DNA from: Schmidtea nova | Taxonomy: Eukaryota | Length of the DNA stretch: 64,000 bases | NCBI GenBank assembly: GCA_044892505.1 | Contig: CM097882.1 | Location: 255,874,001-255,938,000, forward strand | Direction: 5' to 3' | Notes under the pieces: model-generated | The model's input: the letters and a program-made list of their open reading frames with translations, nothing else | What the model was told of the DNA's origin: nothing | Database searches by the model: none | Part shown: piece after piece, positions 10,307-27,783 of the stretch | Position numbering within the stretch: position 1 is the stretch's first letter | Layout: the number at the start of each line of letters is the position of its first letter | Program-made: the position numbers and the translations under genes

Positions 10307-13300
10307 TATGATGAGAGCAACCAATCAAACAAATACCCACGAGAAAGAGACTGTACCAGAAATAAATCCAACAAACCCGAATCCAACCAACAACGAAGGC
10401 CGAAAAGAGATAATACAAGAAGATGAAGAAGCAGAAAAAGAAACAGAAAAGGAAGTAGAAAAAGAAGGGAACCAAGAAGAGAAAAGGAAACTCGGGAAAA
10501 GAGGAATGATGGTAATTTTGCCAAACAAGCACGTGTTTCGATTCCAATATAACATAAAAGAAGAAGTAGAAATATTGTTCAATAAAGTGAATGAAATGGC
10601 TCCAGGAGTAACGAAACTGCCCAGAGAAGCATTCCTAAAAATAGAAGGTGCACCAGAAGTAAAATTGAAACTAACGGATACATGGGAAAACCTGGGAGTA
10701 GTAGAGACAAAAAGAAATGTGATGGTAATCAAGGAAATAGAACCAGAAGGAATTCCATCGCCAGTGCGTCACGAAACACGAATCAGTCGAATATTTAAAG
10801 GGAAAATGATACGAAGACGGTTGGGAGAAATAGACGAGTTAGAACGAAAAATGAGAAAGGTCGGAGTAGTAGACGACAAGAGTGAATCAACACAAAAAGC
10901 TATTAAAAGTGAAACAAGACCAACGGAAAATACACCAAGTGAAATCAACCAAATAAAACACATTAACATGTTGAGAGGCCAGGCAAAGAAATTCTCAGAT
11001 GACGAAGAGGATAGTGACGTCAGTAGTCTAGCCGGAGATATGCTAAACGAACCGGAAATTGAAGACAAAAAGATAGAAGTAGTAAAGACACCAGAAACTA
11101 TTCAAGTAAAAGAGGACGAGATCCAGAAATTATTAGATAACGCGCTAGAAGTAATATATAATGAGGAATTCATTGACAAGAAACACTATAGAAAATTCAT
11201 GAGAGCAATATTACAAATGAACTATAAAGAGTGGTTACCAGGCCGAGAAGTAGAAACACTAAGCCAGTACGTAGGAAAATTATTAAAAGAACCACTCCAT
11301 GAATATATAATCCTAATAGAGATAAAAACATGTTTGCCAAGGATTTGGATCAAAACTCCACTCACGGAAGATATTTATCAATGGGTAGAAGATAGATTAG
11401 GGAGTTCATATAAAAACAAATTCCTCTATTCACAGAATGGACTAGTGAAGAAAAGGACGCATTTGATAGAAACAGGCATATGGCCAGGAGAGGTGACAAC
11501 ACTATCGATATGCGATGATAAGAGAGAAGAGAACCTACAAGAAGTAGCAAAGGAAGCAAATATGTGTTTCGAGAAGAAGATAAAACCACGGTTAGAATAT
11601 GAGAAAGGACGAATCTTACGAGGAAATCTAAATTCCATGATAGAACAAATCATCCCACAAATCAAAAAACATAGAAAGGAGTTAATGAGAAGCGAATACG
11701 AAAAGTTGAAACGATGTATCGAATGCATACGTGACACAAGTCACACGAGATGGTCACAGATCTCATACGGAAAAGTAATTGCAAAAATGGGAAAAGCAAT
11801 GTTCAGACAAGGGAAAATAACAGATCTGAAAATTGCAGTAGAGTTACCTAATGAGGATACCAAAGAAATTGAAGTGGTAGCAGATTGTACCATAAAAGAA
11901 TTAGTAAATGTCATCAACGAGACACTATTACAAAGAGAACCAGAAGAAGAATGGGAAGATGACATAATCATGAAATACAACGAACATGTATTATGGGATC
12001 ACGATGAAAGACGGCTATATAAAATTGGTATATGGGATAATCACCAAACCATCCACGTTATCAGAATGGACGATACACCAAGAGAAACTGCTAAGGATGA
12101 GAAAAGAGAACGGGAACGACAAAAAGAAGTTGTGCATAAATTACAACAAATAGTAGACATTTATCGAAATTGGCGGATTTGGCCAGAATGGGAAGATGTA
12201 TTAGAAGAACTCAATCTCAACAGACGATTACGAACACCTGTAGAAAAACAATGGAACGAACGAGGAAAATGTTGGGAACCAAAAGCAGGCGAATACGAAG
12301 AGGAATACGGAATAGGCATAGAAGACGATCACAAACCGGAAACCGGAAGAGTCTGTATGGTAACAAGAAAAGCCATGCCAGCAGATTTAGACGGACCAGA
12401 AACGACAACCATGTGGTTGGAAAGAGAAAAACAAAAAACGGAAGAATTTGTCGAAATATTAAAAACCAATGCGCACGGCAAGAGAAAAGTAGTAAAAGGT
12501 CTCGCAGATTTTTTCGTAGTTAATGGAGAAGACATAACATGCTTGCGTAAAGTAGCAAAAGCAATCGCCGAATACAAAAGAGTTAACGAGTGGTGTCCAG
12601 AACAATTGGATCACGTAATTAAAAAATGGAGAAACCAAGAATTCTCGCAGGAATCGCCACAGAAAGTACACCTAAGAATAGTATATCCGAACCAAGAAAA
12701 GGAAGAGTTTTGGGTAGGGATAGCGGAGAAAGTTCGAGACATTAAAAAGAAATTGAGATATGAACCACCATTCCATTTACAACACCAAGGACGATCATTA
12801 GATAACAGCTTAGAAATTGGAATAACGCCAGCGCAATTAGATATCGCAAATACATTGACAGTAGCAGCAATAGCAGGTCAACCATTGAAATTGAAAGAGG
12901 AAAAGAAACCAAAAGGAAGTATGAGTACGCCGAGCCCAATGAAATCGGTAATGACTCCAGGAACAAGCTCAGAACAAGCTAGAACAACACCAAGAGAGAC
13001 AAGAGAAAGAACACCACCAGAACCATACGATGTAGACGAAATTTTTACAGATAGCGATGATATGTTAGAGGAGTTAATAGAGCTAACAAAAGAGAAAGAT
13101 GATAATATTTTCGAAAGAATTCAAGAATTACCAACAGCAATACCGGTAACCAACACCGAAGATGAAGTCGAACAAGAAATAATCATAGAAGAAGTAAATG
13201 AAATAGCAGAAGAGGAAGCAAGGAGGGCAAATGTAGAAAACGTACAATTCACACAAGAAATGGAAAGATGGTTAGAAGAAAGAGCCAATGAACCAAGAGA

Positions 13301-16300
13301 CGTCACAGAAGAAACTGGACGAGAAACAAGATTAGTAGAAACGGGCACGACAATGGATAAACGACCTAGAGGTAGACCCAAGATGGATCCAGCAAATGTA
13401 GTTATAAAATCAAGAGAGGAAAAAAGACGGGATCAATGGGATTTGTGTCTAAAGAAACTAAATAAAATAGCCGTAACGAAAGAAAAAGAAACAACACAAA
13501 CATACCAAGGCGAGGAATGGATATCAAAGATGTTAATGGAAATACTGGCAATAATCGATCCGGAATTAAAGAAATGGTGGAGAATAAATGAAATAAGCGA
13601 AAGGGCGAAATCACTGCATAGCGCCATCGCACCAATCCTACCAGAACTAATAAAAGAGAAGACAAGGTCAAATCACCTAGATTGGCAAGGAACCACGATG
13701 TTGATAAAGAAGTTAACGGAAGGAGCAGAGACGGATAACAAATATTTAATAGCTATGGCATACACCATCTACAATCTGCTGACACTGAGTAGAGGTCGAC
13801 TGAAACCCACAGCACTTGAAAGACATATAAAGAATACAGCCAAAATTATAGAGAAAGAAATAGAACCGTACATCATCAGTAAAGGAGGATGGGAAACATT
13901 CACAAAAACGAACCAAAAGAAAAACCAAGCCAAAAATATGAAAAAGAAATTCGAAGAGATATTGGGAGAATTGGAAAAGGAAAAGTCGGGAACAGGAAAC
14001 GGGAAATCATCACTAAACCTGAGTTCTATCATTATGATGATGTTAATATGGATGATTAGTACTGACGGAGCAACAGCATTTGAAGTATTCGATTGTGATC
14101 AAATGGCATTAGGTGAGAAATATTCACTACGAGGGACAGAACAATGTAAGGACGCAACCCCAACGGAGCTAAAAACATTAAAAAAGAGACAATTATACCA
14201 CGTATATCAGGAAGCTGAACTGATAAGAACAATGGTCAGAGAATGCAAAGTTTATAAAACCAGATTTGCTTTTTATTGTGGGCACCGCCATTATTCAGCA
14301 ATCGTGATGCCAGGAACGGAAAGAGAATCGGTAATGCTGCAAGGAGAAGACTGTGAAAAATTATTTAAACATGGAGAAGTAGAGACTAGAGATAGAGTAA
14401 AGATAAGAGGAAAAACGGGAGTGATATTGCAACAAACATATTATGTAGCAGGAGCTATTACGGGAGGAGAAGGGTACTGCCAAGGAGCAACATATCCAAT
14501 ATTCGGAGTAGCAGCAACAAACCTAGTGGTAATAGATACGTTTACAGTGGAACTAAAAACGTACGAGGCATTCTTCGATCCAACGACGGGAGAAATGAAA
14601 ACTCTACCTATGTGCAAAATCGAGTCAAACACTTGTCAGACTGGTATGTCAACCCTAACCTACCAGATACGAGGAAAGGAATGTCAACTACAACTGTTAA
14701 AGGAAGCAGAATTCGATGAGATACAAGGGAAAACCTTCCAAGAGGAAGAAGAAGACGAGGCAGCAAGAGGAAAAATACTTCAAGACACAGTACGGGGAGA
14801 GAAAAAGATTGAAACCCGAACACAAGAAAAACAAATTAAAATGAGAAATACACCAACGGTACTAATTACCTCAGATGCAGATATCGGAATGAGGTTTGTA
14901 AAAGGAAAAACAGCCTTGAAATGCGGAGTAGCCATGTTGGAAACCAACTACCCCGGCATTTTTGTATCAAAACAAGAAGTACCTAGTGCGAAACGCAAAG
15001 TACACACGAACGATGTTAAATTACACCTTTACATGAACAATAAAATGGATTTTCTATTCCATAGAGGACAAGCGTCACTACAAAAAGTGTATTACGATTT
15101 AATAAACAACGATTGCATATTAAATAGGGAAATATTAAAGACAAAATTAGCAGTAGCAATCACAAACCCGGATAGTGCAATGCCATTATTACCATTAAGA
15201 GAAGGTCATTTTGGAAGAGTAGTCGGAGAGGTCATGTACGTATACATATGTAAAAAGACAAATGCGAAGGTAGCGACAATGACAAAACTACAACCAGGTC
15301 AGTGTACTAACGAACTAGAAATCGAATATAAAGGGAAAGTAAGATATGTACAACCAGTGACAAGAATCATAAATCCAATAAGCTTCGAACCAAATCCTTT
15401 CAATTGCAGCAACGCATATGGACCACTATACCAAAAACCAGACGGAAATTGGGTTATGTTTCCGTCAAGAACAGAGGTACCAGCACCAAGGGAATTTGAA
15501 TTGATGCAACTATCAAAAGGACGAAAATTTAAAGACGTAGACGTAAGCAATATGGGATTCTATAGCGCAAAGGATTTAGAAGCAGCAAGACAAAACATAC
15601 TATTTCCGGCAAGACGAGAAGCGGTGTTATCCAGTATTGTAACAATAACAGGAGGAACAAATTACCAAGGTGGACCAAATTACGAATTATTATTGTCACC
15701 AGCCCACTTTAAGAAGGCAACGGAAAACATGATGAAAGCGATGTGGGGAAGATTTTTAATATTTGGACAAATGATGGCAGGAATACTTGGTGTTATACTA
15801 ATTATACAAATAATACGGGTAATAATAACGCAAATGTTAGCCTGTTTTGACATCTATAAAAGAGAAAAGAAAGTAAATTGGAAATTGGTGGTAGGATTCT
15901 TACCATTTCTGGCTAAAACAATGGTATTACACGGTCATTCGAAAGATATTCACCGAATAAAGAGACTCCTAAAAATACTGGCAAAAATGAAAGGAACCGA
16001 TGAAGAGGTGGGACGAAAATTTAAAAAGATAATGAATAACGAGCAAGCAAGACAACAACTAAAGAAAGAGAGAAAAGGACTATGGGAAAGAATGAAAGGG
16101 TACAGAACCCAAGACGATTCCAGTGACGACGATGATGATGATAACGAAGGAGGTCAAGTATTTAAAAATCAAGTACCACAGTATGTCGAAAAGAATCCAG
16201 CGGAAATGTGGAAGTGTTACGCACCCCCACCAACTATGTACCAAGAACCAACACCAGGGATGAGACAAAATACAATGCAAATGATGCCGATGACAAACAT

Positions 16301-19300
16301 ATATCCTATGATACCAGAAGACTATAGAACGAGACGGTGCAGAAGCGTAGATCCGCAAGGAGACTCACATACAATTGCAGTAATGTCATCAAACACCGGT
16401 CCAGTATTAACTACAACAATCGAAATTAACGGAAGGGAAATTGAAGCGATGATTGATACAGGAGCAAATATCTCAGCAATAGATATAAAATGGATACCAC
16501 AAGAACAAAGACGGGATATTGAGAGAACCAACGTTCACGTAATAGCATGCAGTAAAGAAGTAGTAGAAGTTTCCGGAAGATGGCGGGTAAAGATAAAACA
16601 TCAAAACACGGAAATCGAAACGTACGTAGCAGTAATACCAGCACTGAGCGTACCATGCATTATAGGTACGGATCTGATGCCAGCATTATTTAAAGAAATA
16701 GTTATTGACCTCGGAACAATGAGATTAAAGGATAGGACAGGACAGATATGCGCAATAGAAGCAAAAGTAACAAGTTCGAAACAAATAATCGTACCAGCAC
16801 GGAGAGAGAAAATATGTTTCGTAAAAATAGATCCTACAATAGAAGGTGACATAATCTTTGAACCCAGTAAAAGATTTGAAAAGAGAAAGTCGTTGCCAAT
16901 GGCAAGGGGATTAGTGAGTGCGAATGACAACGGAGAAATCCCAATAAATGTAGTAAATTTCGATGAAGAGGATAAAATAATTTATGAAAATGAAAGATTA
17001 GGTAAACTAACTCCAATGATAGATATCGAAATACCAATAAAAGAAGGAGTAAAAGAGGAGGAACCCACTTGGAACATTGATAGCCAACTATTAAATGAGG
17101 ACCAAAAGAAACAGCTAGAAAGATTACTGATGGAATATAAAGACATATTCGCAACATCCGATTTAGATTTAGGGACATGCGACGTCACACTACATACGAT
17201 TCCACTAACAGACGAAACGCCGATTGCGTTAAGACCATACAAGTTAGCTGAAGCGCAAAAATCAGTAGCAGAAGCAGAGGTACAGAAAATGCTAGACGCA
17301 GAAGTAATTGAACCAAGCTGCTCACCGTGGCAATTCCCAGTTGTAATGGTGAAAAAGAAAGACGGAACACAACGATTTTGTATTGATTATCGGAGATTAA
17401 ATGCAGTTACAAAAAGGGATACATACCCATTACCAGACATCAACGAGATGTTATTGACATTACAAGGAGCGGCATACTTTACATCATTAGATTTGAAAAG
17501 CGGATACTGGCAAATTAAAATGAAGGAGGAAGACAAAGAGAAAACTGCTTTCACTATCGGAAGAGACTTGTACCAATTTAGGAAAATGCCATTCGGACTA
17601 ACCAATGCGCCAGCATCATTTCAAAGATGTATGAATTTCGTTACCCACGGCATAAAACAATGCATGGTTTACATTGATGACCTACTAATCTACTCAAGCA
17701 CATTTGAACAACACATCCAAGATATCAGAGATGTATTTGTGAGATTGAGACAATGGAAACTTAAGCTCAAACCATCGAAATGCGATTGGGCAAAAGAGAA
17801 AGTGACATTCTTAGGACATATTGTGTCCGCAAAAGGAAAGGAACCAGATCCCAGAAACATTGATAAAGTAAAAGAATGTCCAGTACCAAAGACGATAACG
17901 CAGATCCAAGAATTTCTCGGATTATGCGGTTACTATAGAAAATTCATAAAGGATTACGCAGGAATTGCAAAACCAATCCAGGAGCTAGTAAAGAAAGACG
18001 TATCGTTCATATGGGGAAGCGAACAACAAACAGCCTTCGAAACATTACGAGATAAGTTAATAACTGCACCAATATTGGTTCACCCGGATTTCAAGAAGCC
18101 ATTTTTACTCGCAACCGACGCAAGTGGATATGCAGCAGGAGCAGTGTTAGGACAATATGATGACGAGGGAAAAGAGCGGGTAATCGGATATTATAGCAGA
18201 ACATTCAAGAAACACGAGAAGAATTATTCAGTAACGGAAAGAGAAGCATTGGCGATAATATTAGCAATAAAACACTTTAAATATCTACTATGGGGACACG
18301 TTATATGCATAACCACGGATCATCAACCACTTGTATGGCTAGGACAACACAAGGAAACATCCAGCAGGTTGATGAGATGGGCGATGCAATTACAAGAATA
18401 TTCACCAGATATAAAATTCAAATCAGGAAAAGCGAATGCCAACGCAGATTGTATGTCAAGATTAACGTTTCCAGAACTAACAGACCCAGAAGTGCAAAGA
18501 ATATGCATAGTGATAGCAGAGGACTTGGATTTCAGTGAGTTAAAGAAAGATCAGCAAGAGGATAAAGAACTAAAACCCATCATAGAATTTCTAAGCTCAC
18601 GAAATATGGATGTATTCGAAGACAATGCGGAGTTAAAAGAACACATGAGGAAATACCAACACCGATACACAATAGAAAAAGGATGGTTGTTAATACAAGA
18701 TGGAGAAAAACGATTAATGTGTCTGCCAAGTAATAGACGAAAAGAGATAATAACTCAATACCATGACGGAAAGCTAGGAGGACACATGTCCTCTAAGAAA
18801 ACATTAGATCGTATGAGACAGAAATATTATTGGCCAACAATGGACGAAGACGTAAAGGAATGGATAAAGAACTGTTTAACTTGTGCCACAAGAAAGGATA
18901 GTGGGAAGAAATGGAAAAATCCCTTAAAACCCATGCCAATACCAGCGGAACCAATGACTACCATTGCGATGGATGTAATAGGACCATTGCCAGAAAGTTT
19001 AAACGGGAATCAATATATATTGGTAATAACGGATTATTTGACTAAATTCCCTGAAGCATTTGCGATGCCGGATCAAAAAGCAAAGACCGTAGCAAGAATT
19101 TTAGTAGAGGAAATATGTTGTCGATACGGAACCCCGAAACAAATACTAACAGATCAAGGAACAAATTTTATGAGCGAAATACTAGATGAAGTAACAAATT
19201 ACTTCAGAATAGCTAAATTACGAACGTCACCATATCATCCGCAAACCAATGGACAAACGGAAAGATTTAACGGCACATTGATTCGAATGTTATCCAATTA

Positions 19301-22300
19301 TGTAAGCAAACACCAAACAGATTGGGATGAATACGTAAAGCTATGTCTAATGGCATACAGAATGTCGATACACGCAGCAACAAAATTGAGTCCATTTCAA
19401 TTAATGTATGGAAGGGAATGCAATATGCCAATAGATCTTGAATATCAACCACCTTTGTCTCAATATATGGAGGAAGATGATTACGTCACCAAATTCAAAG
19501 AACGAATGCAAGAGATATGGAAGACAGCTGAACTGAACATAAAGTTTTACCAAGAAAGTTACAAGGACCTACACGATCAAAAGAAAAATGTTAAAACAAA
19601 TGATCTTAAACCAGGAGATTGGGTAATGATAGAAACCCCAGAAATAATACCAGGAACCGTTAAAAAACTACAAAGACCAGGAAAAGGCCCTTACGAAGTT
19701 ATATACAAAAAGGAAAACAATGTGAAGGTAAAACTTGTTAATCGACCATTGATACGACCAATATACGTTAATACATGCAGATGTAAAAAAGTACCAAAGA
19801 CAATAACCACAGCGCCAGAAGAACGAATAATAACCAGATCCCAGACAGCCAGAATGAATATGCTCAGAGCAACCAATGAAAGTACCGAAGCAGAGAACAA
19901 TCAACGAGAAAAAAGAAACAAGGAAATTGTACTAAAAGCCAGAGAAATAATGGGAAAATGGCATGTCAGAGACGATATATTAAGAGATATTCAGTCGATA
20001 ATTAGTGATTACGCAAGGGGACTACCAACAAAACCAGTCATTTCAGAACTACTGGAAAAGATTCCAGAAATACTTTCACTAGAAGACATAGGAGGACAAC
20101 CAGCATTACATAACGCCATAAAATGGGGAGAGGTAGAGAGAGTAAAAGAATTTCTAAAAATCGCTAAGGAAACAAACCAACACCTTGGTTTTGGGAATAA
20201 CGAACAAGAAACACCCTTAATGGTAGCAGCCATCTACAAATCGGATAAAGCAATAATAGACCTTTTGATAAATGCCGATTTCAACTGGACGGAACGCGAT
20301 AGAGAAAACAAAACGGTCTTGAATCACGCAATATGGAGCTCAAATCAGATAATGCTCAAACAAATAATCGAGAAGGCCACTTGGGAAATAGACGAACTGA
20401 TCAAAGGTGATATAATCAAGGAGGCAATAAAAATCGGTAACTGCAAAACAATACGCAAGCTAATAAAATGGAAAAGATCCGAAAATGATACATGGGTATT
20501 AAATATAAACGAAGTATACAGTAAAGGACAAAACGCGTTATTTCAATTCCTATTAAAATTAGTTTGTGATCAGAAAACACTGTTAATATTATTGGACAGA
20601 AGAAAGATCACAATTTCCAAAAACAAAGAGGAGTGTAAATTCGAAAGCGAAAAAGAAGCATTATTCAGGAAAATTAGGGAATGGTGTGCAAAATCGCTAA
20701 CCAAGTCGATAACTTACAAAGATATATCCAATTTTCAAGATAAGTACAAAACGGTGGAGGAAGAGTATGACAAACTAGTAGACATATTAAACCACCCCGA
20801 AAAATGCAAACAATTCCTAGGTCGAAAGGAAAGAGAAAGCAAAAGGAAATTTACACCACTTTTCAGCGCAGAGGTACCATATCAAGAAAGGTTAGATGCG
20901 ATACAGGACAAAGCAAAAGAACTATTACCAGAATTCGAGAATTCTAAACATACACTGGAGATACTCGGATCAATTGTGGAAAAGGTACACGCATATGCGG
21001 AAGGAACTTACAATGAAAACGATATGATGATCATAAAAAGAGAAATGCCAGTGACTTTCTTATTAACAAAGAATGGAGTATTGCCAATACATAGAGCCTT
21101 ACGAGCAGGAAAAGATAGGAGGGTAGTCGAAATTGCACGGTTGATGCAAGATTGCGGAAGTGACATGAACATGAAAGATAAAAAGGGAGATACCCTCATG
21201 ATATTCGCAGCAAGAGCGAACACAAAAACCCGAGTGTTACAGGAACTGTACGAAGCAGGTGCAGGACTCATGGGAAGAACTAACAAAGACAGCTCAATAC
21301 TAGACGTAGCGTTGTTAGCGCACAATTGGGAGGTGATAAATTTCATAAAAACAATCACAAATCAGGAGGAAATAGAATACCTTACAAGGACAGTTAAAAA
21401 AGCTAGCGTACATTCCATGATGCATAACGCTGAACTAACTGAAGCAATACTCAATTGGATGAACCCAAACACCAATGAACCAGCATTCAGGATCAACGAG
21501 TGCATGGAACAAGGCCAAAATTTGTATATAAAGTGTGCATTAATAATAAACAAATGGCCAAAGATAATAGATATCTTCATGAGAAGAAAAGATTTACGAT
21601 TCACAAACAACCCAAAGGAAACAGAACGTACGGACAAATGGAAAGAACTAATGAAAACGTACCTTAATAATTGGATAAAAGCCAAGAAAGAGATTCTAGA
21701 TTGTAAATTAACCGATAAGGAAATACCTAAGCAGGCAGTAACACAAGAATACGAAGCAAGTATACTCACAACCATAACGTATGAAAAAATGATAGAAGCA
21801 GTTAATGTCGAGGACGACATTTTCAACGACCAAAGGGGAGGTGACAATACAGGAAACGACGACGATAGTACTCGAGAAAATCCAGAGGATCATGAGTTAT
21901 CAGATAAAGAGGACAGTGAAGAGAAAGGAAGGGACACAGAGAAAAATGATAAGAACAATGAATTTGGGAAACAAAGAAACAACAACTATAAAAATAAAAA
22001 CGAAGTAAAAAGAACAGGCTACAAACAAACAATAAACCCATTCTTTAAACCAGAACTATTATTACTAACGGTAATCATGACCTTAATTAGTCCAACTCAA
22101 GGAATGATATGTGAAGAAAAAGCGACAATACAAATTGGAAACGCAAAAGGAATCGAACGAGTATGTTGGTCAAAAAAGGACAAAATATCGGGACAAAATA
22201 GTCCAATGGATTGCAGGATCTCAGAATATGAACAAGAAATCATAGAGATCGATGACTTAGAGCTAGATACTTGGTACAGAATGTGCACCGTTCGGAAACC

Positions 22301-23996
22301 AAAGGATCCGAGATCACATAAGACAATTGCATGTGCAAATTACCTAACACCCAAAGTAACCATAACAGTACAGCAGTCATCCAAAGGAGACTATGTCGTA
22401 GGAAAGTGTGGAAGAACAGAGACACAAGGAACAAAAAACAAGAAACCTCAGACAATAGACAGACGAACAACGCCAACTATACAAATTACCATAGACAGGC
22501 CCGAAGTAAGAGTAACCACAAATGAAACTGAAAGAGTGACCTACCAAGCAGAATTACTATGTTTAGCACTCATATTAACAATGTTAAAACGGTTAGAAGA
22601 AGGGATAGACATTGACACAATGGCAGTAACAGAGATGAACGACACCCAAAACACCAACCCAAAGTGTTGGGCCAGAAGCAACGAAGAAATTGGCGTAAGC
22701 GAAATAAAGACGAGTCGGAAAAGGAAAACAAATAAAGTAACCAAGATATCAGAAGTAAAAGCAGACAGGACGTATGAACTATGTTTACTAGAAAAAGAAA
22801 GACACAAGAAAGGAACGACAATTTGTAAAACATTTCAACCTGGGGAAACAATAAAGTTCATACGACGAGGAAGAAGAAATAAACGCACCAAACGGAGAAC
22901 AACTATAATGTTAGAGTTAACCGGAATAGAACCGGACGTCAAAGGCGTATGCTGGAAGAAGCAGGAAAAGAAAACAAACCAGAATACACCGCCGCAATGT
23001 CGAACAAACAGAGGAACAACCACAATACAGATAGAAGGGTTAGAAAGTAATCAAACGTACGAAATATGCCTGATCAGGAAGAGCGACAAAATAACAGTAA
23101 ATGAACTGGAATGCAAAATATATAAAACACCCACCAGAACAAGAATTGGAAAGACAACGCGAAAAAGCAGAAGACAACGGAACAAAGGAAAAACGAGGTA
23201 TACCACTACTTTTAAACCTAATGGACAACAGAAAAACCAAGAAATACAAATAAAAACCGAAAAGAATACTACAGCAACTCTTATACTATGGAGAATAGAC
23301 AATAAAACGTTAGAAATATGTTGGGTAATAGTTCAGAAACAAAGGGAAAGACAGCCACGAGACTGTGGAAACGTGAAAGGAAAAGAGGAAATAAGTATCA
23401 GAAATCTGAAATTCAATAGCGAATACGAGATATGTGCGGTAGAAAAGACGGACATATTAGGAAATCAGCAGGAAAGATGCGAAACGTACTACACACCGGT
23501 AAACTCAACGTCCAAAGGGAAAGTGAGAAAACTCGAATTTAAAGAATTAAGTCAGACAACGAAACAAATGGACGCGGAACAAGTAGTAATAGACCCTTAC
23601 GCAAGATGGACGCCGGAAGAAGTAATTAAAGAAGTTAAAAGAAAACAACAAGAACGAGAACAACTACTAAATAAACTAAAGGGACAATACGGACCAATGA
23701 TTAACCAGAGTGAAATTACGAAGATGGACGTAAACAAACAAGTTAGAGAACTAATTGGTCTGGGAATACTAGCAGCAACTATTCCAGTAATAACAGTATT
23801 ATTAATAATATGGATATATGATGTATTCAACAAGAAACCAATAACACATTGGCCAGATATAAAGATTATGAACTACAGTATAGAATTACCGGAAGAAGTA
23901 CAGAAAGAATTTCAAAGGAGGACGAAAGGCAAAGAATTTTGGAGACAAATAGAAGATGAAGAGCGATACGAAGGAAAGACAGTGATGGTGATATAG
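10227..23996 (+). CDS. pol: 4589-aa polyprotein: Ubl domains, AT-hook, Bcl-2-like, Env, PR, dUTPase-like spacer, RT, RNase H, IN, ankyrin repeats, FN3 membrane protein
   Basis: Uninterrupted ORF with PR IDTGA (16455), RT LKSGYWQI and YIDD (17670), RH DASG, IN HHCC plus D-D-E (MDVIG, TDQGTNF, PQTNGQTER) and GPY. Extra domains are listed separately. Confidence 0.97.
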   Translation: MLRNGQEYKEKRNKKQQERERQPLRINMMRATNQTNTHEKETVPEINPTNPNPTNNEGRKEIIQEDEEAEKETEKEVEKEGNQEEKRKLGKRGMMVILPNKHVFRFQYNIKEEVEILFNKVNEMAPGVTKLPREAFLKIEGAPEVKLKLTDTWENLGVVETKRNVMVIKEIEPEGIPSPVRHETRISRIFKGKMIRRRLGEIDELERKMRKVGVVDDKSESTQKAIKSETRPTENTPSEINQIKHINMLRGQAKKFSDDEEDSDVSSLAGDMLNEPEIEDKKIEVVKTPETIQVKEDEIQKLLDNALEVIYNEEFIDKKHYRKFMRAILQMNYKEWLPGREVETLSQYVGKLLKEPLHEYIILIEIKTCLPRIWIKTPLTEDIYQWVEDRLGSSYKNKFLYSQNGLVKKRTHLIETGIWPGEVTTLSICDDKREENLQEVAKEANMCFEKKIKPRLEYEKGRILRGNLNSMIEQIIPQIKKHRKELMRSEYEKLKRCIECIRDTSHTRWSQISYGKVIAKMGKAMFRQGKITDLKIAVELPNEDTKEIEVVADCTIKELVNVINETLLQREPEEEWEDDIIMKYNEHVLWDHDERRLYKIGIWDNHQTIHVIRMDDTPRETAKDEKRERERQKEVVHKLQQIVDIYRNWRIWPEWEDVLEELNLNRRLRTPVEKQWNERGKCWEPKAGEYEEEYGIGIEDDHKPETGRVCMVTRKAMPADLDGPETTTMWLEREKQKTEEFVEILKTNAHGKRKVVKGLADFFVVNGEDITCLRKVAKAIAEYKRVNEWCPEQLDHVIKKWRNQEFSQESPQKVHLRIVYPNQEKEEFWVGIAEKVRDIKKKLRYEPPFHLQHQGRSLDNSLEIGITPAQLDIANTLTVAAIAGQPLKLKEEKKPKGSMSTPSPMKSVMTPGTSSEQARTTPRETRERTPPEPYDVDEIFTDSDDMLEELIELTKEKDDNIFERIQELPTAIPVTNTEDEVEQEIIIEEVNEIAEEEARRANVENVQFTQEMERWLEERANEPRDVTEETGRETRLVETGTTMDKRPRGRPKMDPANVVIKSREEKRRDQWDLCLKKLNKIAVTKEKETTQTYQGEEWISKMLMEILAIIDPELKKWWRINEISERAKSLHSAIAPILPELIKEKTRSNHLDWQGTTMLIKKLTEGAETDNKYLIAMAYTIYNLLTLSRGRLKPTALERHIKNTAKIIEKEIEPYIISKGGWETFTKTNQKKNQAKNMKKKFEEILGELEKEKSGTGNGKSSLNLSSIIMMMLIWMISTDGATAFEVFDCDQMALGEKYSLRGTEQCKDATPTELKTLKKRQLYHVYQEAELIRTMVRECKVYKTRFAFYCGHRHYSAIVMPGTERESVMLQGEDCEKLFKHGEVETRDRVKIRGKTGVILQQTYYVAGAITGGEGYCQGATYPIFGVAATNLVVIDTFTVELKTYEAFFDPTTGEMKTLPMCKIESNTCQTGMSTLTYQIRGKECQLQLLKEAEFDEIQGKTFQEEEEDEAARGKILQDTVRGEKKIETRTQEKQIKMRNTPTVLITSDADIGMRFVKGKTALKCGVAMLETNYPGIFVSKQEVPSAKRKVHTNDVKLHLYMNNKMDFLFHRGQASLQKVYYDLINNDCILNREILKTKLAVAITNPDSAMPLLPLREGHFGRVVGEVMYVYICKKTNAKVATMTKLQPGQCTNELEIEYKGKVRYVQPVTRIINPISFEPNPFNCSNAYGPLYQKPDGNWVMFPSRTEVPAPREFELMQLSKGRKFKDVDVSNMGFYSAKDLEAARQNILFPARREAVLSSIVTITGGTNYQGGPNYELLLSPAHFKKATENMMKAMWGRFLIFGQMMAGILGVILIIQIIRVIITQMLACFDIYKREKKVNWKLVVGFLPFLAKTMVLHGHSKDIHRIKRLLKILAKMKGTDEEVGRKFKKIMNNEQARQQLKKERKGLWERMKGYRTQDDSSDDDDDDNEGGQVFKNQVPQYVEKNPAEMWKCYAPPPTMYQEPTPGMRQNTMQMMPMTNIYPMIPEDYRTRRCRSVDPQGDSHTIAVMSSNTGPVLTTTIEINGREIEAMIDTGANISAIDIKWIPQEQRRDIERTNVHVIACSKEVVEVSGRWRVKIKHQNTEIETYVAVIPALSVPCIIGTDLMPALFKEIVIDLGTMRLKDRTGQICAIEAKVTSSKQIIVPARREKICFVKIDPTIEGDIIFEPSKRFEKRKSLPMARGLVSANDNGEIPINVVNFDEEDKIIYENERLGKLTPMIDIEIPIKEGVKEEEPTWNIDSQLLNEDQKKQLERLLMEYKDIFATSDLDLGTCDVTLHTIPLTDETPIALRPYKLAEAQKSVAEAEVQKMLDAEVIEPSCSPWQFPVVMVKKKDGTQRFCIDYRRLNAVTKRDTYPLPDINEMLLTLQGAAYFTSLDLKSGYWQIKMKEEDKEKTAFTIGRDLYQFRKMPFGLTNAPASFQRCMNFVTHGIKQCMVYIDDLLIYSSTFEQHIQDIRDVFVRLRQWKLKLKPSKCDWAKEKVTFLGHIVSAKGKEPDPRNIDKVKECPVPKTITQIQEFLGLCGYYRKFIKDYAGIAKPIQELVKKDVSFIWGSEQQTAFETLRDKLITAPILVHPDFKKPFLLATDASGYAAGAVLGQYDDEGKERVIGYYSRTFKKHEKNYSVTEREALAIILAIKHFKYLLWGHVICITTDHQPLVWLGQHKETSSRLMRWAMQLQEYSPDIKFKSGKANANADCMSRLTFPELTDPEVQRICIVIAEDLDFSELKKDQQEDKELKPIIEFLSSRNMDVFEDNAELKEHMRKYQHRYTIEKGWLLIQDGEKRLMCLPSNRRKEIITQYHDGKLGGHMSSKKTLDRMRQKYYWPTMDEDVKEWIKNCLTCATRKDSGKKWKNPLKPMPIPAEPMTTIAMDVIGPLPESLNGNQYILVITDYLTKFPEAFAMPDQKAKTVARILVEEICCRYGTPKQILTDQGTNFMSEILDEVTNYFRIAKLRTSPYHPQTNGQTERFNGTLIRMLSNYVSKHQTDWDEYVKLCLMAYRMSIHAATKLSPFQLMYGRECNMPIDLEYQPPLSQYMEEDDYVTKFKERMQEIWKTAELNIKFYQESYKDLHDQKKNVKTNDLKPGDWVMIETPEIIPGTVKKLQRPGKGPYEVIYKKENNVKVKLVNRPLIRPIYVNTCRCKKVPKTITTAPEERIITRSQTARMNMLRATNESTEAENNQREKRNKEIVLKAREIMGKWHVRDDILRDIQSIISDYARGLPTKPVISELLEKIPEILSLEDIGGQPALHNAIKWGEVERVKEFLKIAKETNQHLGFGNNEQETPLMVAAIYKSDKAIIDLLINADFNWTERDRENKTVLNHAIWSSNQIMLKQIIEKATWEIDELIKGDIIKEAIKIGNCKTIRKLIKWKRSENDTWVLNINEVYSKGQNALFQFLLKLVCDQKTLLILLDRRKITISKNKEECKFESEKEALFRKIREWCAKSLTKSITYKDISNFQDKYKTVEEEYDKLVDILNHPEKCKQFLGRKERESKRKFTPLFSAEVPYQERLDAIQDKAKELLPEFENSKHTLEILGSIVEKVHAYAEGTYNENDMMIIKREMPVTFLLTKNGVLPIHRALRAGKDRRVVEIARLMQDCGSDMNMKDKKGDTLMIFAARANTKTRVLQELYEAGAGLMGRTNKDSSILDVALLAHNWEVINFIKTITNQEEIEYLTRTVKKASVHSMMHNAELTEAILNWMNPNTNEPAFRINECMEQGQNLYIKCALIINKWPKIIDIFMRRKDLRFTNNPKETERTDKWKELMKTYLNNWIKAKKEILDCKLTDKEIPKQAVTQEYEASILTTITYEKMIEAVNVEDDIFNDQRGGDNTGNDDDSTRENPEDHELSDKEDSEEKGRDTEKNDKNNEFGKQRNNNYKNKNEVKRTGYKQTINPFFKPELLLLTVIMTLISPTQGMICEEKATIQIGNAKGIERVCWSKKDKISGQNSPMDCRISEYEQEIIEIDDLELDTWYRMCTVRKPKDPRSHKTIACANYLTPKVTITVQQSSKGDYVVGKCGRTETQGTKNKKPQTIDRRTTPTIQITIDRPEVRVTTNETERVTYQAELLCLALILTMLKRLEEGIDIDTMAVTEMNDTQNTNPKCWARSNEEIGVSEIKTSRKRKTNKVTKISEVKADRTYELCLLEKERHKKGTTICKTFQPGETIKFIRRGRRNKRTKRRTTIMLELTGIEPDVKGVCWKKQEKKTNQNTPPQCRTNRGTTTIQIEGLESNQTYEICLIRKSDKITVNELECKIYKTPTRTRIGKTTRKSRRQRNKGKTRYTTTFKPNGQQKNQEIQIKTEKNTTATLILWRIDNKTLEICWVIVQKQRERQPRDCGNVKGKEEISIRNLKFNSEYEICAVEKTDILGNQQERCETYYTPVNSTSKGKVRKLEFKELSQTTKQMDAEQVVIDPYARWTPEEVIKEVKRKQQEREQLLNKLKGQYGPMINQSEITKMDVNKQVRELIGLGILAATIPVITVLLIIWIYDVFNKKPITHWPDIKIMNYSIELPEEVQKEFQRRTKGKEFWRQIEDEERYEGKTVMVI
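11823..12065 (+). other. Ubiquitin-like domain in the polyprotein (clearest of up to four; others near 10503-10740, 11300-11510, 12663-12870)
   Basis: LKIAVELPNEDTKEIEVVADCTIKELVNVI...IIMKYNEHVL..D.RRLYKIGI..QTIHVI follows the ubiquitin beta-grasp pattern. Confidence 0.65.
13420..13910 (+). other. Bcl-2-like helical domain in the polyprotein
   Basis: BH2-type motif EPYIISKGGWETF (13869-13901) ending an all-helical region of about 150 aa. BH1 NWGR is degenerate. Confidence 0.65.
14010..15930 (+). other. env: Envelope glycoprotein, chuvirus-like / class III fusion type, embedded in the polyprotein
   Basis: Internal signal peptide SIIMMMLIWMISTDGATA|FEVFDC, then YSL..EQC, CKV...FYCG and a Cys-rich ectodomain. 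C-terminal WGRFLIFGQMMAGILGVILIIQIIRVII TM. Confidence 0.8.
20090..21360 (+). other. Two ankyrin-repeat clusters after integrase (~20090-20500 and ~21060-21360)
   Basis: GQPALHNAIKWG, ETPLMVAA, KTVLNHAI, GVLPIHRAL, GDTLMIFAA, SSILDVAL. Confidence 0.85.
22040..23996 (+). other. Type I membrane protein module: signal peptide, four FN3-like repeats, TM, short tail
   Basis: LLLLTVIMTLISPTQG signal. Repeats IDDLELDTWYRMC, VKADRTYELCL, IEGLESNQTYEICL, IRNLKFNSEYEICAV. TM LIGLGILAATIPVITVLLIIWIY. Confidence 0.7.
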
Positions 23997-24121: not shown

Positions 24122-24478
24122 ATGAACGAACAGGAAGAAATAGCAGAAACTACTATGGCTATGCGATGGAAAGCCCAGTGTGACATGTTAATACGAACAA
24201 TCAACTCACTACAAAATCAGTTAATTGAGAAACAGAATTTGTTATCCGAAAGTTATAATAATAGTTTTGAACAACTCCACAGAATCGAGGAGCAACAGAG
24301 ATTGATAACGCAACTTACCAGAGAGAATCAAGTGATGAGCGACATAAATCAGAGACAAGCAATAGAGATAGACCGTTTAACAATGGGAGAGACAGAAGAA
24401 GCAGAGGATGGATGGACAAATTGGGCAATAAACAGATCAGAAAACGACCCAGAACCAGATTCAACAAACGAGCCGTAG
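24122..24478 (+). CDS. Accessory coiled-coil protein (118 aa)
   Basis: ATG ORF with the element's A-rich codon style, heptad pattern and an upstream TAG acceptor. Confidence 0.7.
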   Translation: MNEQEEIAETTMAMRWKAQCDMLIRTINSLQNQLIEKQNLLSESYNNSFEQLHRIEEQQRLITQLTRENQVMSDINQRQAIEIDRLTMGETEEAEDGWTNWAINRSENDPEPDSTNEP

Positions 24479-24568: not shown

Positions 24569-25951
24569 ATGAATACAGAAGGAAAAGCCGAAGAGCGGAT
24601 AATCGAAATTTTGAGAGCCGAGAACAGGAAATGGAGTCTGAGACTCACTTGTGTAAATTGTAAAAACATAATATTGAAACCAAGACAAACCCTATGCGGA
24701 TGCAGAGTATGTACCAAATGCATACACGAGTTAAGTATGAAAAGACCACCAGAATGTCCAGAATGCAAAGAAGGTCAAATAAAATTCGAAGAAACCGGAC
24801 CAGATAGAGCAACTCAGAGAGAAATCATGAACACGAAAACCGAATGTATAAATCAACCATGTATATGGCAAGGACAAATACGCGATCTCGAGAACCATCT
24901 GGAGAACTGCGAAGAGAAGAGAACTGAATGTAACAAATGCCAACAAAAAATAACTATAAAGAATAAAGAGCAGCACAAAGATGAATGTAAAGAAGAGGAA
25001 AGTCTATGCGAATATTGTGGAACTCGAGAAACGAGGAGAAAGATCGAAGAAGAACACCTGAATATAAAAGAGGAGAAAGTATGTAGACAATATGTAGGAA
25101 TATGTTCAAACGAATGCGAGATAACGGTAGAAGTAAAATTACAAGAACATTGGAAAGTGTGCACGGAGAAACCAAGGGAATGTCCTTATAACAAACAGGG
25201 ATGTATGGAGAAAAGAACGCAAAAAACCATGAAACAACATCTGGAGGAAGCATTACTAAAGCATGCGGAAATGACAAACGAAGCAACAAAAGAAACCGAA
25301 CAAACAATCAAAAAATTAGAAAGAGAAATAGAGTCACACAAGATAATGGTAAACCTACTGTTGGAAACCAGAGAGCAATTCGAACTAACACGAGAAAAGA
25401 TGGAGGAAAAGATAAAAGCTATCGAAGAACTGGCTAAAGGAATGAAAATCCAGTACAACAAACTCACCCAGGATACCGAGGAAAAGTTACCAATCGCACC
25501 ATATGTGTGGAAAGTGACAGATTTTAGAAACAAATTAACAGAGGCCAGAAATATGACGAAAACAGCAGTAATAAGCCCACCATTTTATTTATGGAGAAAC
25601 GGAGCTAAAGTGAGATTGAAGCTATACCCAAATGGAGACGGAAGAGGACGAGGAACACATGTGTCAATATTTTTCTCGCTATGTAAAGGAGAATACGACG
25701 ACCTAGTAGAATGGCCCTTGAAAGTAGGAGTCATCATTAGAATCAGAAGTGTAACAAAACCAGTAGAAAAATTCTTTGAGACAGAGAAACATGCGAGTAC
25801 GAGCGAGAAACCAACCACAGAATGTGGATTAGCAGCGGGAGAACCAATGTTTATAACGAAAGAAAGCCTATGGGAACGATTATATGCAGACACCCTATAC
25901 ATAGAAATGGAAAGGAATGAGAAAGCGGATAGAAAAGAATGGTTGACGTAA
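24569..25951 (+). CDS. TRAF-family protein (RING, TRAF zinc fingers, coiled coil, MATH domain), 460 aa
   Basis: RING CVNC...PRQTLCGCRVCTKC...CPEC; zinc fingers; MATH YVWKVTDF...ISPPFY...KLYPNGDGRGRGTHVSIFF...GEYDDLVEWP. Confidence 0.93.
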   Translation: MNTEGKAEERIIEILRAENRKWSLRLTCVNCKNIILKPRQTLCGCRVCTKCIHELSMKRPPECPECKEGQIKFEETGPDRATQREIMNTKTECINQPCIWQGQIRDLENHLENCEEKRTECNKCQQKITIKNKEQHKDECKEEESLCEYCGTRETRRKIEEEHLNIKEEKVCRQYVGICSNECEITVEVKLQEHWKVCTEKPRECPYNKQGCMEKRTQKTMKQHLEEALLKHAEMTNEATKETEQTIKKLEREIESHKIMVNLLLETREQFELTREKMEEKIKAIEELAKGMKIQYNKLTQDTEEKLPIAPYVWKVTDFRNKLTEARNMTKTAVISPPFYLWRNGAKVRLKLYPNGDGRGRGTHVSIFFSLCKGEYDDLVEWPLKVGVIIRIRSVTKPVEKFFETEKHASTSEKPTTECGLAAGEPMFITKESLWERLYADTLYIEMERNEKADRKEWLT

Positions 25952-26066: not shown

Positions 26067-27128
26067 ATGGGAAATATCGAAGTATGCTTACAGGAAATTA
26101 CGATGCATCAAGCAGAAGCGATTAGCGATCATCTAGAACAGATTGAAATATGGGTCAATGCATATTATGGAAAGCAAGAGGAGATAGAGAGACAAGCCGA
26201 ATTATTAAAAGAAGCGGAAAGATCAAGTCAAAGAAGTCGAGAAAAAATAGAAGAAGTATACAAAATGCTACAACAACAAAAGGAATATTACCAGAGAATG
26301 ATGAAAGAGCGACGAGAGGAAAGAGACAGACAGCAGATGGAAGCTGAACACAAGATGTATTCGATTACAGAACAAGCAAGATACTGGAAGAAAGAAGCGA
26401 AAGAATCTTACGAAAAAGCTAGAGAAATAATAGAAAGGACAGCTTATAGTGATGATTGGAAGTTATATAAAGAGATCGATGAACTAAAAGACGAGTTAGA
26501 GCAAAAAATCAACCAGGAAGTGTTAAATAAAAGATGGAATACAAAAAGACAGCAATTTATCCGCGAACAAGCAAAGAAAATTAAAGGACTAACCTATCAA
26601 GTTCAAAGAATGGGAGAAGAACTAGCTAATCAAGAACAACTGAAAACTATGCTCACCGGAATATGGAATCAGAAAGAAGAAGAGATGAAGAGAGATATAA
26701 ATGGTTATCAAGGGGTGATTACTCAAAAGAAAATAGAGCTAAAAAGAACCAGAGAAAGGTTAAAGGAAGCGAAGCAAAGTTATGAGGAAAATTTAACGAA
26801 TTTGATGAAAGAAAACGAAGAATTGAAACAGAAACGAGTAACAGTACTAGCAATACCCAAAGAAACAAGTACAACGGCAGCCGTAACAAAAATGATGAAA
26901 GAAGACGAACAAAAGACAAAAGTAATCGAATTAGAGAAGCAAATAGAAACATTAACAGAACAAGCAAATTACCTAGAATATTTGCTGGACGAGGAGATCC
27001 AGATATCTCACATGTATCGAGATGAAGTCGAAATGTGGAGGAGCAGGGTTGTTTGGATACCACTCCCCACGAACCAGGTAGAACCTCAGGACGAAGGTTT
27101 CTACGAACCAAACGAGACGATTGTGTAA
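26067..27128 (+). CDS. Accessory long coiled-coil protein (353 aa)
   Basis: E/K/Q-rich helical ORF with an upstream TAG acceptor. Confidence 0.8.
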   Translation: MGNIEVCLQEITMHQAEAISDHLEQIEIWVNAYYGKQEEIERQAELLKEAERSSQRSREKIEEVYKMLQQQKEYYQRMMKERREERDRQQMEAEHKMYSITEQARYWKKEAKESYEKAREIIERTAYSDDWKLYKEIDELKDELEQKINQEVLNKRWNTKRQQFIREQAKKIKGLTYQVQRMGEELANQEQLKTMLTGIWNQKEEEMKRDINGYQGVITQKKIELKRTRERLKEAKQSYEENLTNLMKENEELKQKRVTVLAIPKETSTTAAVTKMMKEDEQKTKVIELEKQIETLTEQANYLEYLLDEEIQISHMYRDEVEMWRSRVVWIPLPTNQVEPQDEGFYEPNETIV

Positions 27129-27210: not shown

Positions 27211-27783
27211 ATGAAAAAGCTCAGAATACCGATATTCCTATACCTAATAACAATCACCCTACAAAGAGAAGATCTTCAACTCACAGAGAAGGAGCTACGA
27301 GCCCTACCCGAGAAAACCTATCAAGAACTAGATAAACTAATCAGCGAAGCAACACAAGAAATCACCCAACTTCAACAGATAACATCAGACAACCCAAACG
27401 ATGAAAAATTTCAACAGGTCCTATATGAACATCGAATCAAATTGAAAACAATCAGAAAAACCCTAAAGGAAGGTCGAGAACCCATAAAAAGCTTAGCCCA
27501 AGCAGAGATAGAATATCAAGAAAAATGGATCATCGCAATTATAATAATCCTTGCACTCAGCGTGACCATTATCGCGATCACAATCCTCATAACATCATAC
27601 CGAGTGAAGATCTTAAAACAAAAACATGTCATCCTGAATCGAACAACAATACAAGACATCAGAACCCAAAAGCGAATGAGAAAACACCTAAACCAAATCC
27701 AAAGCCACTACGAACTACGAACAATCAGCGAAAGAACCCCAATCCAATCCAATACCAATCATGAAATCAAAGAGCTTGTGTAA
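27211..27783 (+). CDS. Accessory membrane protein (190 aa; hydrophobic N-terminus, helical hairpin, TM)
   Basis: N-terminal LRIPIFLYLITITL; TM WIIAIIIILALSVTIIAITILITSY followed by a basic tail. Confidence 0.75.
   Translation: MKKLRIPIFLYLITITLQREDLQLTEKELRALPEKTYQELDKLISEATQEITQLQQITSDNPNDEKFQQVLYEHRIKLKTIRKTLKEGREPIKSLAQAEIEYQEKWIIAIIIILALSVTIIAITILITSYRVKILKQKHVILNRTTIQDIRTQKRMRKHLNQIQSHYELRTISERTPIQSNTNHEIKELV

Follow-up and report, generated by a model that had tools for sequence, protein, structure and literature searches.

We describe a second predicted membrane protein encoded at the C-terminal end of the polyprotein of a giant Gypsy long terminal repeat (LTR) retrotransposon in Schmidtea nova. 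The element lies in a window of 64,000 nucleotides (nt) (CM097882.1, positions 255,874,001 to 255,938,000, forward strand), to which all coordinates refer. The protein comprises the last 651 amino acids (aa) of the polyprotein open reading frame (ORF), in frame with pol, and its predicted features support its assignment as a type-I-like membrane protein, the second such protein of an intact Gypsy element that also carries an envelope protein (env). The feature is real, and its interest lies less in the single protein than in the conserved, content-swapping slot behind the integrase (IN) in which it resides. Accounts of retrotransposons with an env usually give them a single envelope protein.

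The first-pass annotation had delimited this protein as 22040..23996. The end coincides with the in-frame ORF end, but the start is one base off, the first full codon being 22041 (aa 3946). The segment consists of the following parts, where R1 to R4 denote the four repeats, TM stands for transmembrane, pLDDT for predicted local distance difference test, and rmsd for root mean square deviation:

22041–22103 (+), second internal signal peptide, aa 3946–3966, predicted cut after G3966 (rule and hydropathy)
22104–22361 (+), repeat R1, 26/83 residues identical to R3
22545–22604 (+), internal hydrophobic stretch, apparent signal-peptide paralog
22605–22853 (+), repeat R2, the most diverged, without the C'-strand Cys; model pLDDT mostly <50
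22863–22898 (+), first polybasic stretch, three overlapping R-x-K/R-R motifs; disordered in the model, directly ahead of the R3 B strand
22890–23135 (+), repeat R3, FN3-like six-strand (B–G) core in the model; best Z 8.4, rmsd 2.7, 76 aligned
23160–23180 (+), second basic stretch, RKSRRQR, minimal RxxR only, within a 36-aa linker of net charge +12
23244–23501 (+), repeat R4, seven-strand FN3-like model; best Z 8.7, rmsd 2.6, 83 aligned
23502–23747 (+), stalk with an amphipathic segment (hydrophobic moment)
23751–23819 (+), C-terminal TM helix, aa 4516–4538; mean hydropathy 2.46 over 23 aa
23823–23996 (+), predicted cytosolic tail of 57 aa, plus the stop codon; ORF end

The pattern of a type I membrane glycoprotein, namely, an h-region with a -3/-1 site, a single C-terminal TM helix, and sequons, is present as judged by hydropathy and rule only. 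Both the signal peptide and the C-terminal TM helix claimed in the first-pass annotation were recovered, the latter being strongly hydrophobic. The signal core consists of 12 uncharged residues (LLLLTVIMTLIS), and the cut after G3966 fits the -3/-1 rule. There is no Met of its own upstream; hence, the signal is internal, as is the one ahead of env. The ectodomain contains 7 sequons compared with 4.3 expected, a number reached in 12% of shuffles and hence in no excess over chance, and the segment is a putative glycoprotein. The amphipathic segment of the stalk is probably helical.

The four Cys-bearing repeats with a Tyr-Cys core, also claimed previously, are clearly delineated by the motif [LV]x5Yx[ILM]C, which occurs exactly four times in the whole polyprotein, each time within the segment (nt 22257, 22755, 23040, and 23406). 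In 2,000 shuffles of the ectodomain, the motif appeared 0.007 times on average and at most once, a figure that overstates the surprise because the motif was derived from these same repeats. Pairwise similarity exceeded that in all 1,000 shuffles for four of the six repeat pairs and was equaled in 1 of 1,000 for R2-R3 and in 47 of 1,000 for R2-R4. All four repeats retain three Cys, a Trp, and the Tyr. The hallmarks of the FN3 fold are a Leu in the E-F loop with a Tyr in strand F and a Trp at the end of strand B. In the repeats, the Tyr of the E-F motif is present in four of four and the Leu in three, with Val in R2; a Trp at the end of strand B is found in R4 only, and the invariant Trp sits in strand C.

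Structural modeling indicates an FN3-like fold for at least two of the repeats. The AlphaFold2 model of R4, built from a 4-row alignment, has a pLDDT of 77 and seven strands, of which the A strand falls below 50. In the VIA comparison of this model, the top 16 of 50 rows are all FN3 domains by title (Z 8.1–8.7, rmsd mostly 2.4–2.9), and the best Foldseek matches are FN3 monobodies (probability 1.0, E 0.004 and weaker). A joint model of R2 and R3 is confident for R3 alone, and R3 (model residues 99–178) aligns to FN3 over strands B–G; a strand drawn by the model ahead of the polybasic stretch was not aligned as part of R3. In the Atlas, the ectodomain scored 0.84–0.86 to FN3 clusters with a recognition value of 1406, which is below the threshold of the tool and is only a lead. 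Because the matches ranked highest are uniformly FN3, in agreement with the E-F motif and the Atlas lead, the models of R3 and R4 can be considered well supported as FN3-like despite borderline Z-scores, and R1 is probably FN3-like as well, given its similarity to R3 and R4. Thus, the first-pass description of four FN3-like repeats stands for R4 and R3, on the strength of their models, but not for R2, which was modeled poorly, and no repeat matched the Pfam fn3 family. Sequence searches against PDB yielded only E 0.8–1.2 with the four-repeat profile (contactin-4 and chitinase) and nothing meaningful with the ectodomain.

These repeats resemble those of animal FN3 surface proteins (Dscam, fibronectin, L1CAM, NCAM, receptor phosphatases, and cytokine receptors) in the predicted fold of R3 and R4, the Leu/Val-x5-Tyr E-F motif, and the arrangement as a tandem array on a stalk followed by a TM helix. 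They differ in having 9–21% identity to FN3 matches, no Pfam fn3 assignment, a weak or missing A strand, two Cys pairs per repeat, and polybasic inserts.

The internal hydrophobic stretch ahead of R2, which the first-pass annotation had also reported, exists as 11 uncharged residues with a hydropathy peak of 2.98, as high as that of the signal peptide, followed by KR; however, it appears to be a duplicate of the signal peptide rather than a TM helix. The two pairs, signal peptide with R1 and inner stretch with R2, can be aligned in register (score 80), and when all 23-residue windows of the polyprotein were scanned against the signal peptide, the best were those over the inner stretch. A role as a TM helix or a working signal was ruled out by length, charge, and a poor -3/-1 site. 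The stretch is better read as a putative relic of a duplicated signal-plus-repeat unit that would pass into the lumen, and the alignment indicates that the ectodomain expanded by tandem duplication, with the signal peptide originally part of the duplicated unit. Conceivably, the inner stretch could instead stop transfer, such that R1 alone would be lumenal and R2–R4 cytosolic. The high hydropathy peak with KR directly after it fits such an inverted topology, but the stretch has only 11 uncharged residues, its best 19-mer insertion score is +7.6 compared with -1.9 for the real TM helix, paired Cys and four sequons are located within R2–R4, and no such stretch was found in the related elements described below. 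We therefore regard this topology as highly improbable.

The ectodomain is strongly basic, with a net charge of +36 vs +10 for env. The most basic 12-mer of the polyprotein, RRGRRNKRTKRR, contains 9 K/R, which 1.2% of ectodomain shuffles reach, and the three overlapping optimal furin motifs of the first polybasic stretch were equaled in 2.3% of shuffles. This is the one optimal furin cluster (aa 4221–4230), located between R2 and R3; between R3 and R4, there is only a minimal RxxR. A scan of the ectodomain for R-x-K/R-R found none at R1/R2 and none between R4 and the TM helix, so that no repeat other than R3 could be released as a single unit. The polybasic linkers of the first-pass annotation are present as basic stretches, but the first is perhaps not a clean linker, given that it sits where the A strand or A-B loop of R3 is expected. 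The accompanying proposal that furin sheds single FN3 units appears weak, with a single optimal cluster here and no motifs in the ectodomains of the two related elements with FN3-like units (P0049 and P0050). The charge of the ectodomain would suit glycosaminoglycan binding as well as cleavage.

Relatives were sought with the env-to-ankyrin region of the polyprotein among long proteins, which gave 17 matches. In four of these (P0049–P0052), env is inside pol, and identity to the window element is 33–40% for env and 54–58% for reverse transcriptase-RNase H (RT-RH). In the RT-RH tree (14 rows, midpoint root; P0061 and P0065 absent, P0063 and P0064 too short), the window element and these four relatives form one branch with support of 98/97. 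All four carry a signal-like stretch after the integrase, and three (P0049, P0050, and P0051) have a TM helix with a basic stop-transfer run. The ectodomains of P0049 and P0050 are homologous (blastp E 3e-6 to 7e-6) and contain two FN3-like motifs and a Thr-rich stalk; in the Atlas, that of P0049 scored 0.92 to FN3 clusters (recognition 1693, below the threshold of the tool and, again, only a lead). In P0051, the corresponding region is a Cys-rich domain of roughly 100 aa, and in P0052, an Ig domain directly follows the signal (Pfam 4e-8). So these elements appear to share a conserved post-integrase slot with interchangeable contents: an FN3-like pair in two elements, an Ig domain in one, and a small Cys-rich domain in one.

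The FN3-like units of P0049 and P0050 have a Cys pattern unlike that of the window element's repeats, and hmmsearch and blastp comparisons of the repeats with these units gave no match. Profile-profile comparison yielded a probability of 11% and E 0.003 over 23 columns, with E ~0.7 for two controls. Both independent capture and deep divergence are possible origins of the two sets of units. Among 11 other matches examined, 8 have no hydrophobic stretch after the integrase and 3 have a signal and a TM helix ~550 aa apart. The latter (P0056, P0058, and P0059) are long Gypsy polyproteins with no env family among the listed Pfam domains, and the pair probably represents a conventional env at the site where env is normally located. 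The first-pass annotation had called a second surface protein after the integrase not standard for Gypsy elements; such a protein recurs in all four env-in-pol relatives found. P0049 (aa 1972–2530), P0050, and P0051 each contain two protease-like motifs; in P0049, the ankyrin region lies between these, upstream of RT instead of after the integrase, so that cargo modules apparently move within the polyprotein. P0049 also carries a ubiquitin domain (4.4e-5).

A word-based search for sequence homologs of the segment found none among proteins of 2,527–8,043 aa (2,418 candidates) or 358–1,140 aa (6,051 candidates). The four-repeat profile, compared with 1.84 billion representatives, gave 47 weak matches in proteins of 558–3,775 aa, mostly with 3–8 matched stretches; two of the 47 had E 1e-10 or better and none reached 1e-30. 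The lack of a detected sequence homolog of the ectodomain, together with the degenerate R2 and the degenerate duplicated signal, could suggest an inert passenger, a piece of a captured gene now decaying or translated without function. However, the frame is open over 651 codons, compared with 73 and 30 stops in the other two frames, all four repeats have kept three Cys and the Tyr, and the architecture recurs in all four relatives at 54–58% RT identity, all of which makes a passenger very unlikely.

The element that encodes this protein has the following main features, where PR stands for protease:

3005–31232 (+), whole giant Gypsy LTR element, 28,228 bp, TG...CA ends, 4-bp target duplication GCTG
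3005–6249 (+), 5' LTR, 3,245 bp, 100% identical to the 3' LTR
6578–7039 (+), accessory RING-finger ORF (zf-C3HC4_3 2.3e-11)
8573–10306 (+), gag ORF with CCHC knuckles, first ATG 9032 (Pfam zf-CCHC 6.5e-9)
10206–23996 (+), polyprotein ORF, 4,596 aa: N-terminal accessory region, env, PR-RT-RH-IN, ankyrin, then the second membrane protein
14007–15836 (+), first glycoprotein (env): internal signal peptide, gB/chuvirus-type fusogen ectodomain, TM helix (Pfam Monjiviricetes_fusion 3.4e-71 and hydropathy)
16413–19790 (+), PR, RT, RH, and IN (Pfam)
19860–22040 (+), ankyrin-repeat region and acidic linker, ahead of the second signal peptide (Ank_2 8.3e-16)
24569–25951 (+), accessory TRAF-like ORF with TRAF zinc finger and MATH (MATH_2 2e-21)
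27988–31232 (+), 3' LTR, 3,245 bp

The identical LTRs, intact ends, and target duplication imply a recent insertion. The surrounding genome is AT-rich and microsatellite-rich, and the flanks of the element are AT-rich repeats. The gag and polyprotein ORFs overlap in different frames, and the stop codon of the latter is at 23994–23996. With LTRs, gag, a gB-type env, and then PR-RT-RH-IN in Gypsy order, the element has env upstream of pol, as is characteristic of GAG-ENV-POL errantiviruses with HSV (herpes simplex virus)/gB-type env, to which it is similar in gene order and env type as far as these are presented in the available portion of PMC13524379. By eye, its env also resembles the Schmidtea mediterranea errantivirus env shown there. 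In that portion, the chromodomain is the only post-integrase domain discussed; FN3, immunoglobulin, ankyrin, and fibronectin do not occur in the main text, nor do fibronectin, FN3, and ankyrin in seven text supplements (PMC13524379).

The element is Burro-like, a likeness set by published description, with length and gag organization differing. It shares with Burro/GYPSM1, a planarian giant Gypsy element (PMC6431247), the giant LTR organization, a mononegavirus-like env in frame upstream of PR, and ankyrin, MATH/TRAF, and RING domains; MATH/TRAF is an accessory ORF in a Burro-type element of Dugesia tigrina (PMC6431247). Unlike Burro, it is 28.2 kb instead of >30 kb long, its gag is a separate ORF as opposed to the same ORF as pol, and its TRAF ORF lies downstream. 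No BIR was detected in 13 segments of the element's ORFs scanned by Pfam, and a ubiquitin-like domain was matched only weakly (Ubiquitin_4, E 0.062). The available portion of the Burro description neither mentions fibronectin nor describes a second membrane protein (PMC6431247). Across the literature that could be searched, in which accounts of Burro1 that may note such a protein were not covered, no FN3 domain or second membrane protein was found described for a Gypsy element.

Several observations concern the remainder of the element. Each LTR contains a pair of ORFs of 158 and 194 aa (4345–4821 and 5138–5722; 29328–29804 and 30121–30705; all +) without meaningful Pfam matches. A sequence at 6256–6273 (+), 6 nt past the 5' LTR, resembles a primer-binding site, presumably for tRNA-Pro, and two short tandem-repeat arrays (7514–7696 and 7836–8073, +) lie in the leader, downstream of the RING ORF and upstream of gag. 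The motif (I/M)NM(M/L)R recurs at domain borders (10302, 10962, and 19854, the last at aa 3217 after the integrase, and at the end of gag; +) and is probably the site of the element's own protease; we take the aa 3217 copy to be such a site, where a cut would detach the ankyrin part. A stretch at 13470–14078 (+), judged BCL2-like by eye and by analogy with Burro, had no Pfam or PDB match and continues into the env signal peptide, just as the ankyrin region continues into the second signal peptide; each cleaved signal could remain as a membrane anchor for its upstream domain. A 190-aa accessory ORF (27211–27783, +), with a moderately hydrophobic N-terminus, a strong TM helix near aa 105–125, and then a basic tail, had no meaningful Pfam match and may represent the element's third membrane protein. 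Two further accessory ORFs (24122–24478, 118 aa, and 26067–27128, 353 aa; +), coiled-coil-like by eye, likewise lacked meaningful Pfam matches. A second, broken Gypsy pol at 56500–60800 (-), with RT, RNase H, and integrase spread over several frames, is only distant kin and has no env match.

Class III fusogens such as herpesvirus gB work with separate receptor-binding proteins. We tentatively favor the interpretation that the C-terminal segment is the attachment partner of the gB-type fusogen, given that the slot tracks env across the clade, that its contents are adhesion-type folds on stalks, and that it is co-encoded with env. In this scheme, alternating topogenic signals would thread the polyprotein through the membrane: signal 1, a lumenal env, and TM 1 would be followed by cytosolic PR-RT-IN-ANK, then by signal 2, a lumenal FN3 array, and TM 2. 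The second membrane protein would be released by signal peptidase and would accompany the fusogen on particles or on the surface of the producer cell; because both are in the same ORF, they would be co-expressed. The FN3 units, along with strongly basic and possibly heparan-sulfate-binding stretches, would dock onto target cells, and env would perform fusion. Furin may additionally cut between R2 and R3, as a lineage-specific extra. Processing, topology, particle location, and binding are all predictions from sequence.

An alternative to release from the polyprotein is a spliced mRNA for the second membrane protein, a weaker proposal that we consider doubtful. An acceptor-like site at 22053/22054, at the start of the second signal core, ranks 6th of 444 in the ORF by a crude score, and a donor-like site at 6012/6013 in the LTR, just past an ATG, matches it in phase and would give the protein its own start. 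The 6012 donor is weak, there are stronger donors without a matching ATG, and the test was post hoc. T-rich YAG acceptor-like sites are also found at 5132, 6574, 24118, 24567, and 26064 (+), 1–5 nt ahead of five accessory-ORF ATGs, which suggests a set of spliced mRNAs resembling that of complex retroviruses.

Several points weigh against an attachment function. Rhabdovirus-type class III fusogens bind receptors unaided, and if the protein is made only within the Pol polyprotein, its amount may be low. Z-scores near 8 are borderline according to the tool's own note and can reflect a common arrangement; no Foldseek match of E 0.001 or better was obtained, nor any match at E 0.001 in a viral fold library, and Pfam fn3 (PF00041) was not detected in the whole segment (E up to 1) or in any repeat (E up to 10). 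The slot is known from four relatives only, a small sample of its range; in P0052, a weak hydrophobic stretch stands at the end in place of a clear TM helix. Neither the basic character nor the furin motifs are shared by the relatives, whose ectodomains are near neutral (net charge +8, -2, +4, and 0). Finally, the TRAF, RING, and ankyrin cargo makes host manipulation just as much in character for this element.

The latter possibility, somewhat less likely in our estimate, is that of a host-manipulating surface protein, in which a captured receptor or adhesion ectodomain would act on the carrier cell as a decoy, modulate its adhesion, or mark it as "self," alongside cargo that counters apoptosis and acts in ubiquitin signaling, and without a role in entry. 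Apart from the TRAF, RING, and ankyrin domains, such a role would be in line with the fact that cytokine receptors and adhesion molecules typically have FN3 and Ig folds (by match titles), with the presence of differing domains in one slot, as suits a cargo site, and with the IAP region of Burro1, reported to protect stem cells from apoptosis as cited in the available part of PMC13465017. However, no specific receptor family was matched, identity to all PDB FN3 matches being 9–21% with no PDB sequence match, the tail shows by eye no TRAF-binding consensus, and the slot tracks env across the clade.

Env-like proteins can cause receptor interference. The segment might accordingly mediate superinfection exclusion, its surface or shed ectodomain occupying or down-regulating the receptor of the element's own env, whose co-expression and the furin cluster, which could release a soluble R1-R2 piece, are compatible with this function. 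Yet interference normally operates via the receptor-binding domain itself, so that this explanation collapses into the attachment model, and the ectodomains of the FN3-like relatives lack furin motifs; overall, we find exclusion quite unlikely.

Comparison with known viruses places the attachment interpretation in context. Two-component entry is known in herpesviruses, where gB functions with gD and gH-gL, and in paramyxoviruses, where F functions with HN, H, or G. The window element is similar in pairing a fusogen with a separate surface protein, but there is no homology, the second component here belongs to a retrotransposon polyprotein and consists of host-like FN3/Ig domains in an array, and its cooperation with the fusogen is only proposed. 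The planarian nidovirus PSCNV, as described in the available portion of PMC6211748, also encodes one very large polyprotein into which ankyrin and fibronectin-type domains have been captured and for which cuts by signal peptidase and furin are predicted; however, it is an RNA virus with fibronectin type II rather than type III and an unrelated replicase, and the parallel is an analogy only.

Extended to the clade, the attachment interpretation becomes the slightly more speculative proposal that giant env-in-pol Gypsy elements possess a two-component entry machine, with a conserved gB-type fusogen shifted to a place ahead of pol and a separate attachment protein after the integrase, in the usual env position, the ectodomain of which would have been repeatedly replaced by captured host adhesion folds (four FN3, two FN3, Ig, or small Cys-rich). 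If so, module swapping would set the cell or host tropism of each element, as in herpesviruses and paramyxoviruses. In the literature searched, no description of such a machine in a retroelement was found. The slot would account for some of the half of Burro-type polyproteins that has no annotation, gives a handle on the choice of target cells by such elements, for example, stem or germ cells, and can serve as a marker for whether they spread from cell to cell. If these interpretations hold, giant invertebrate elements would be either complex viruses in which docking and fusion fall to different parts or routine remodelers of the host cell surface.

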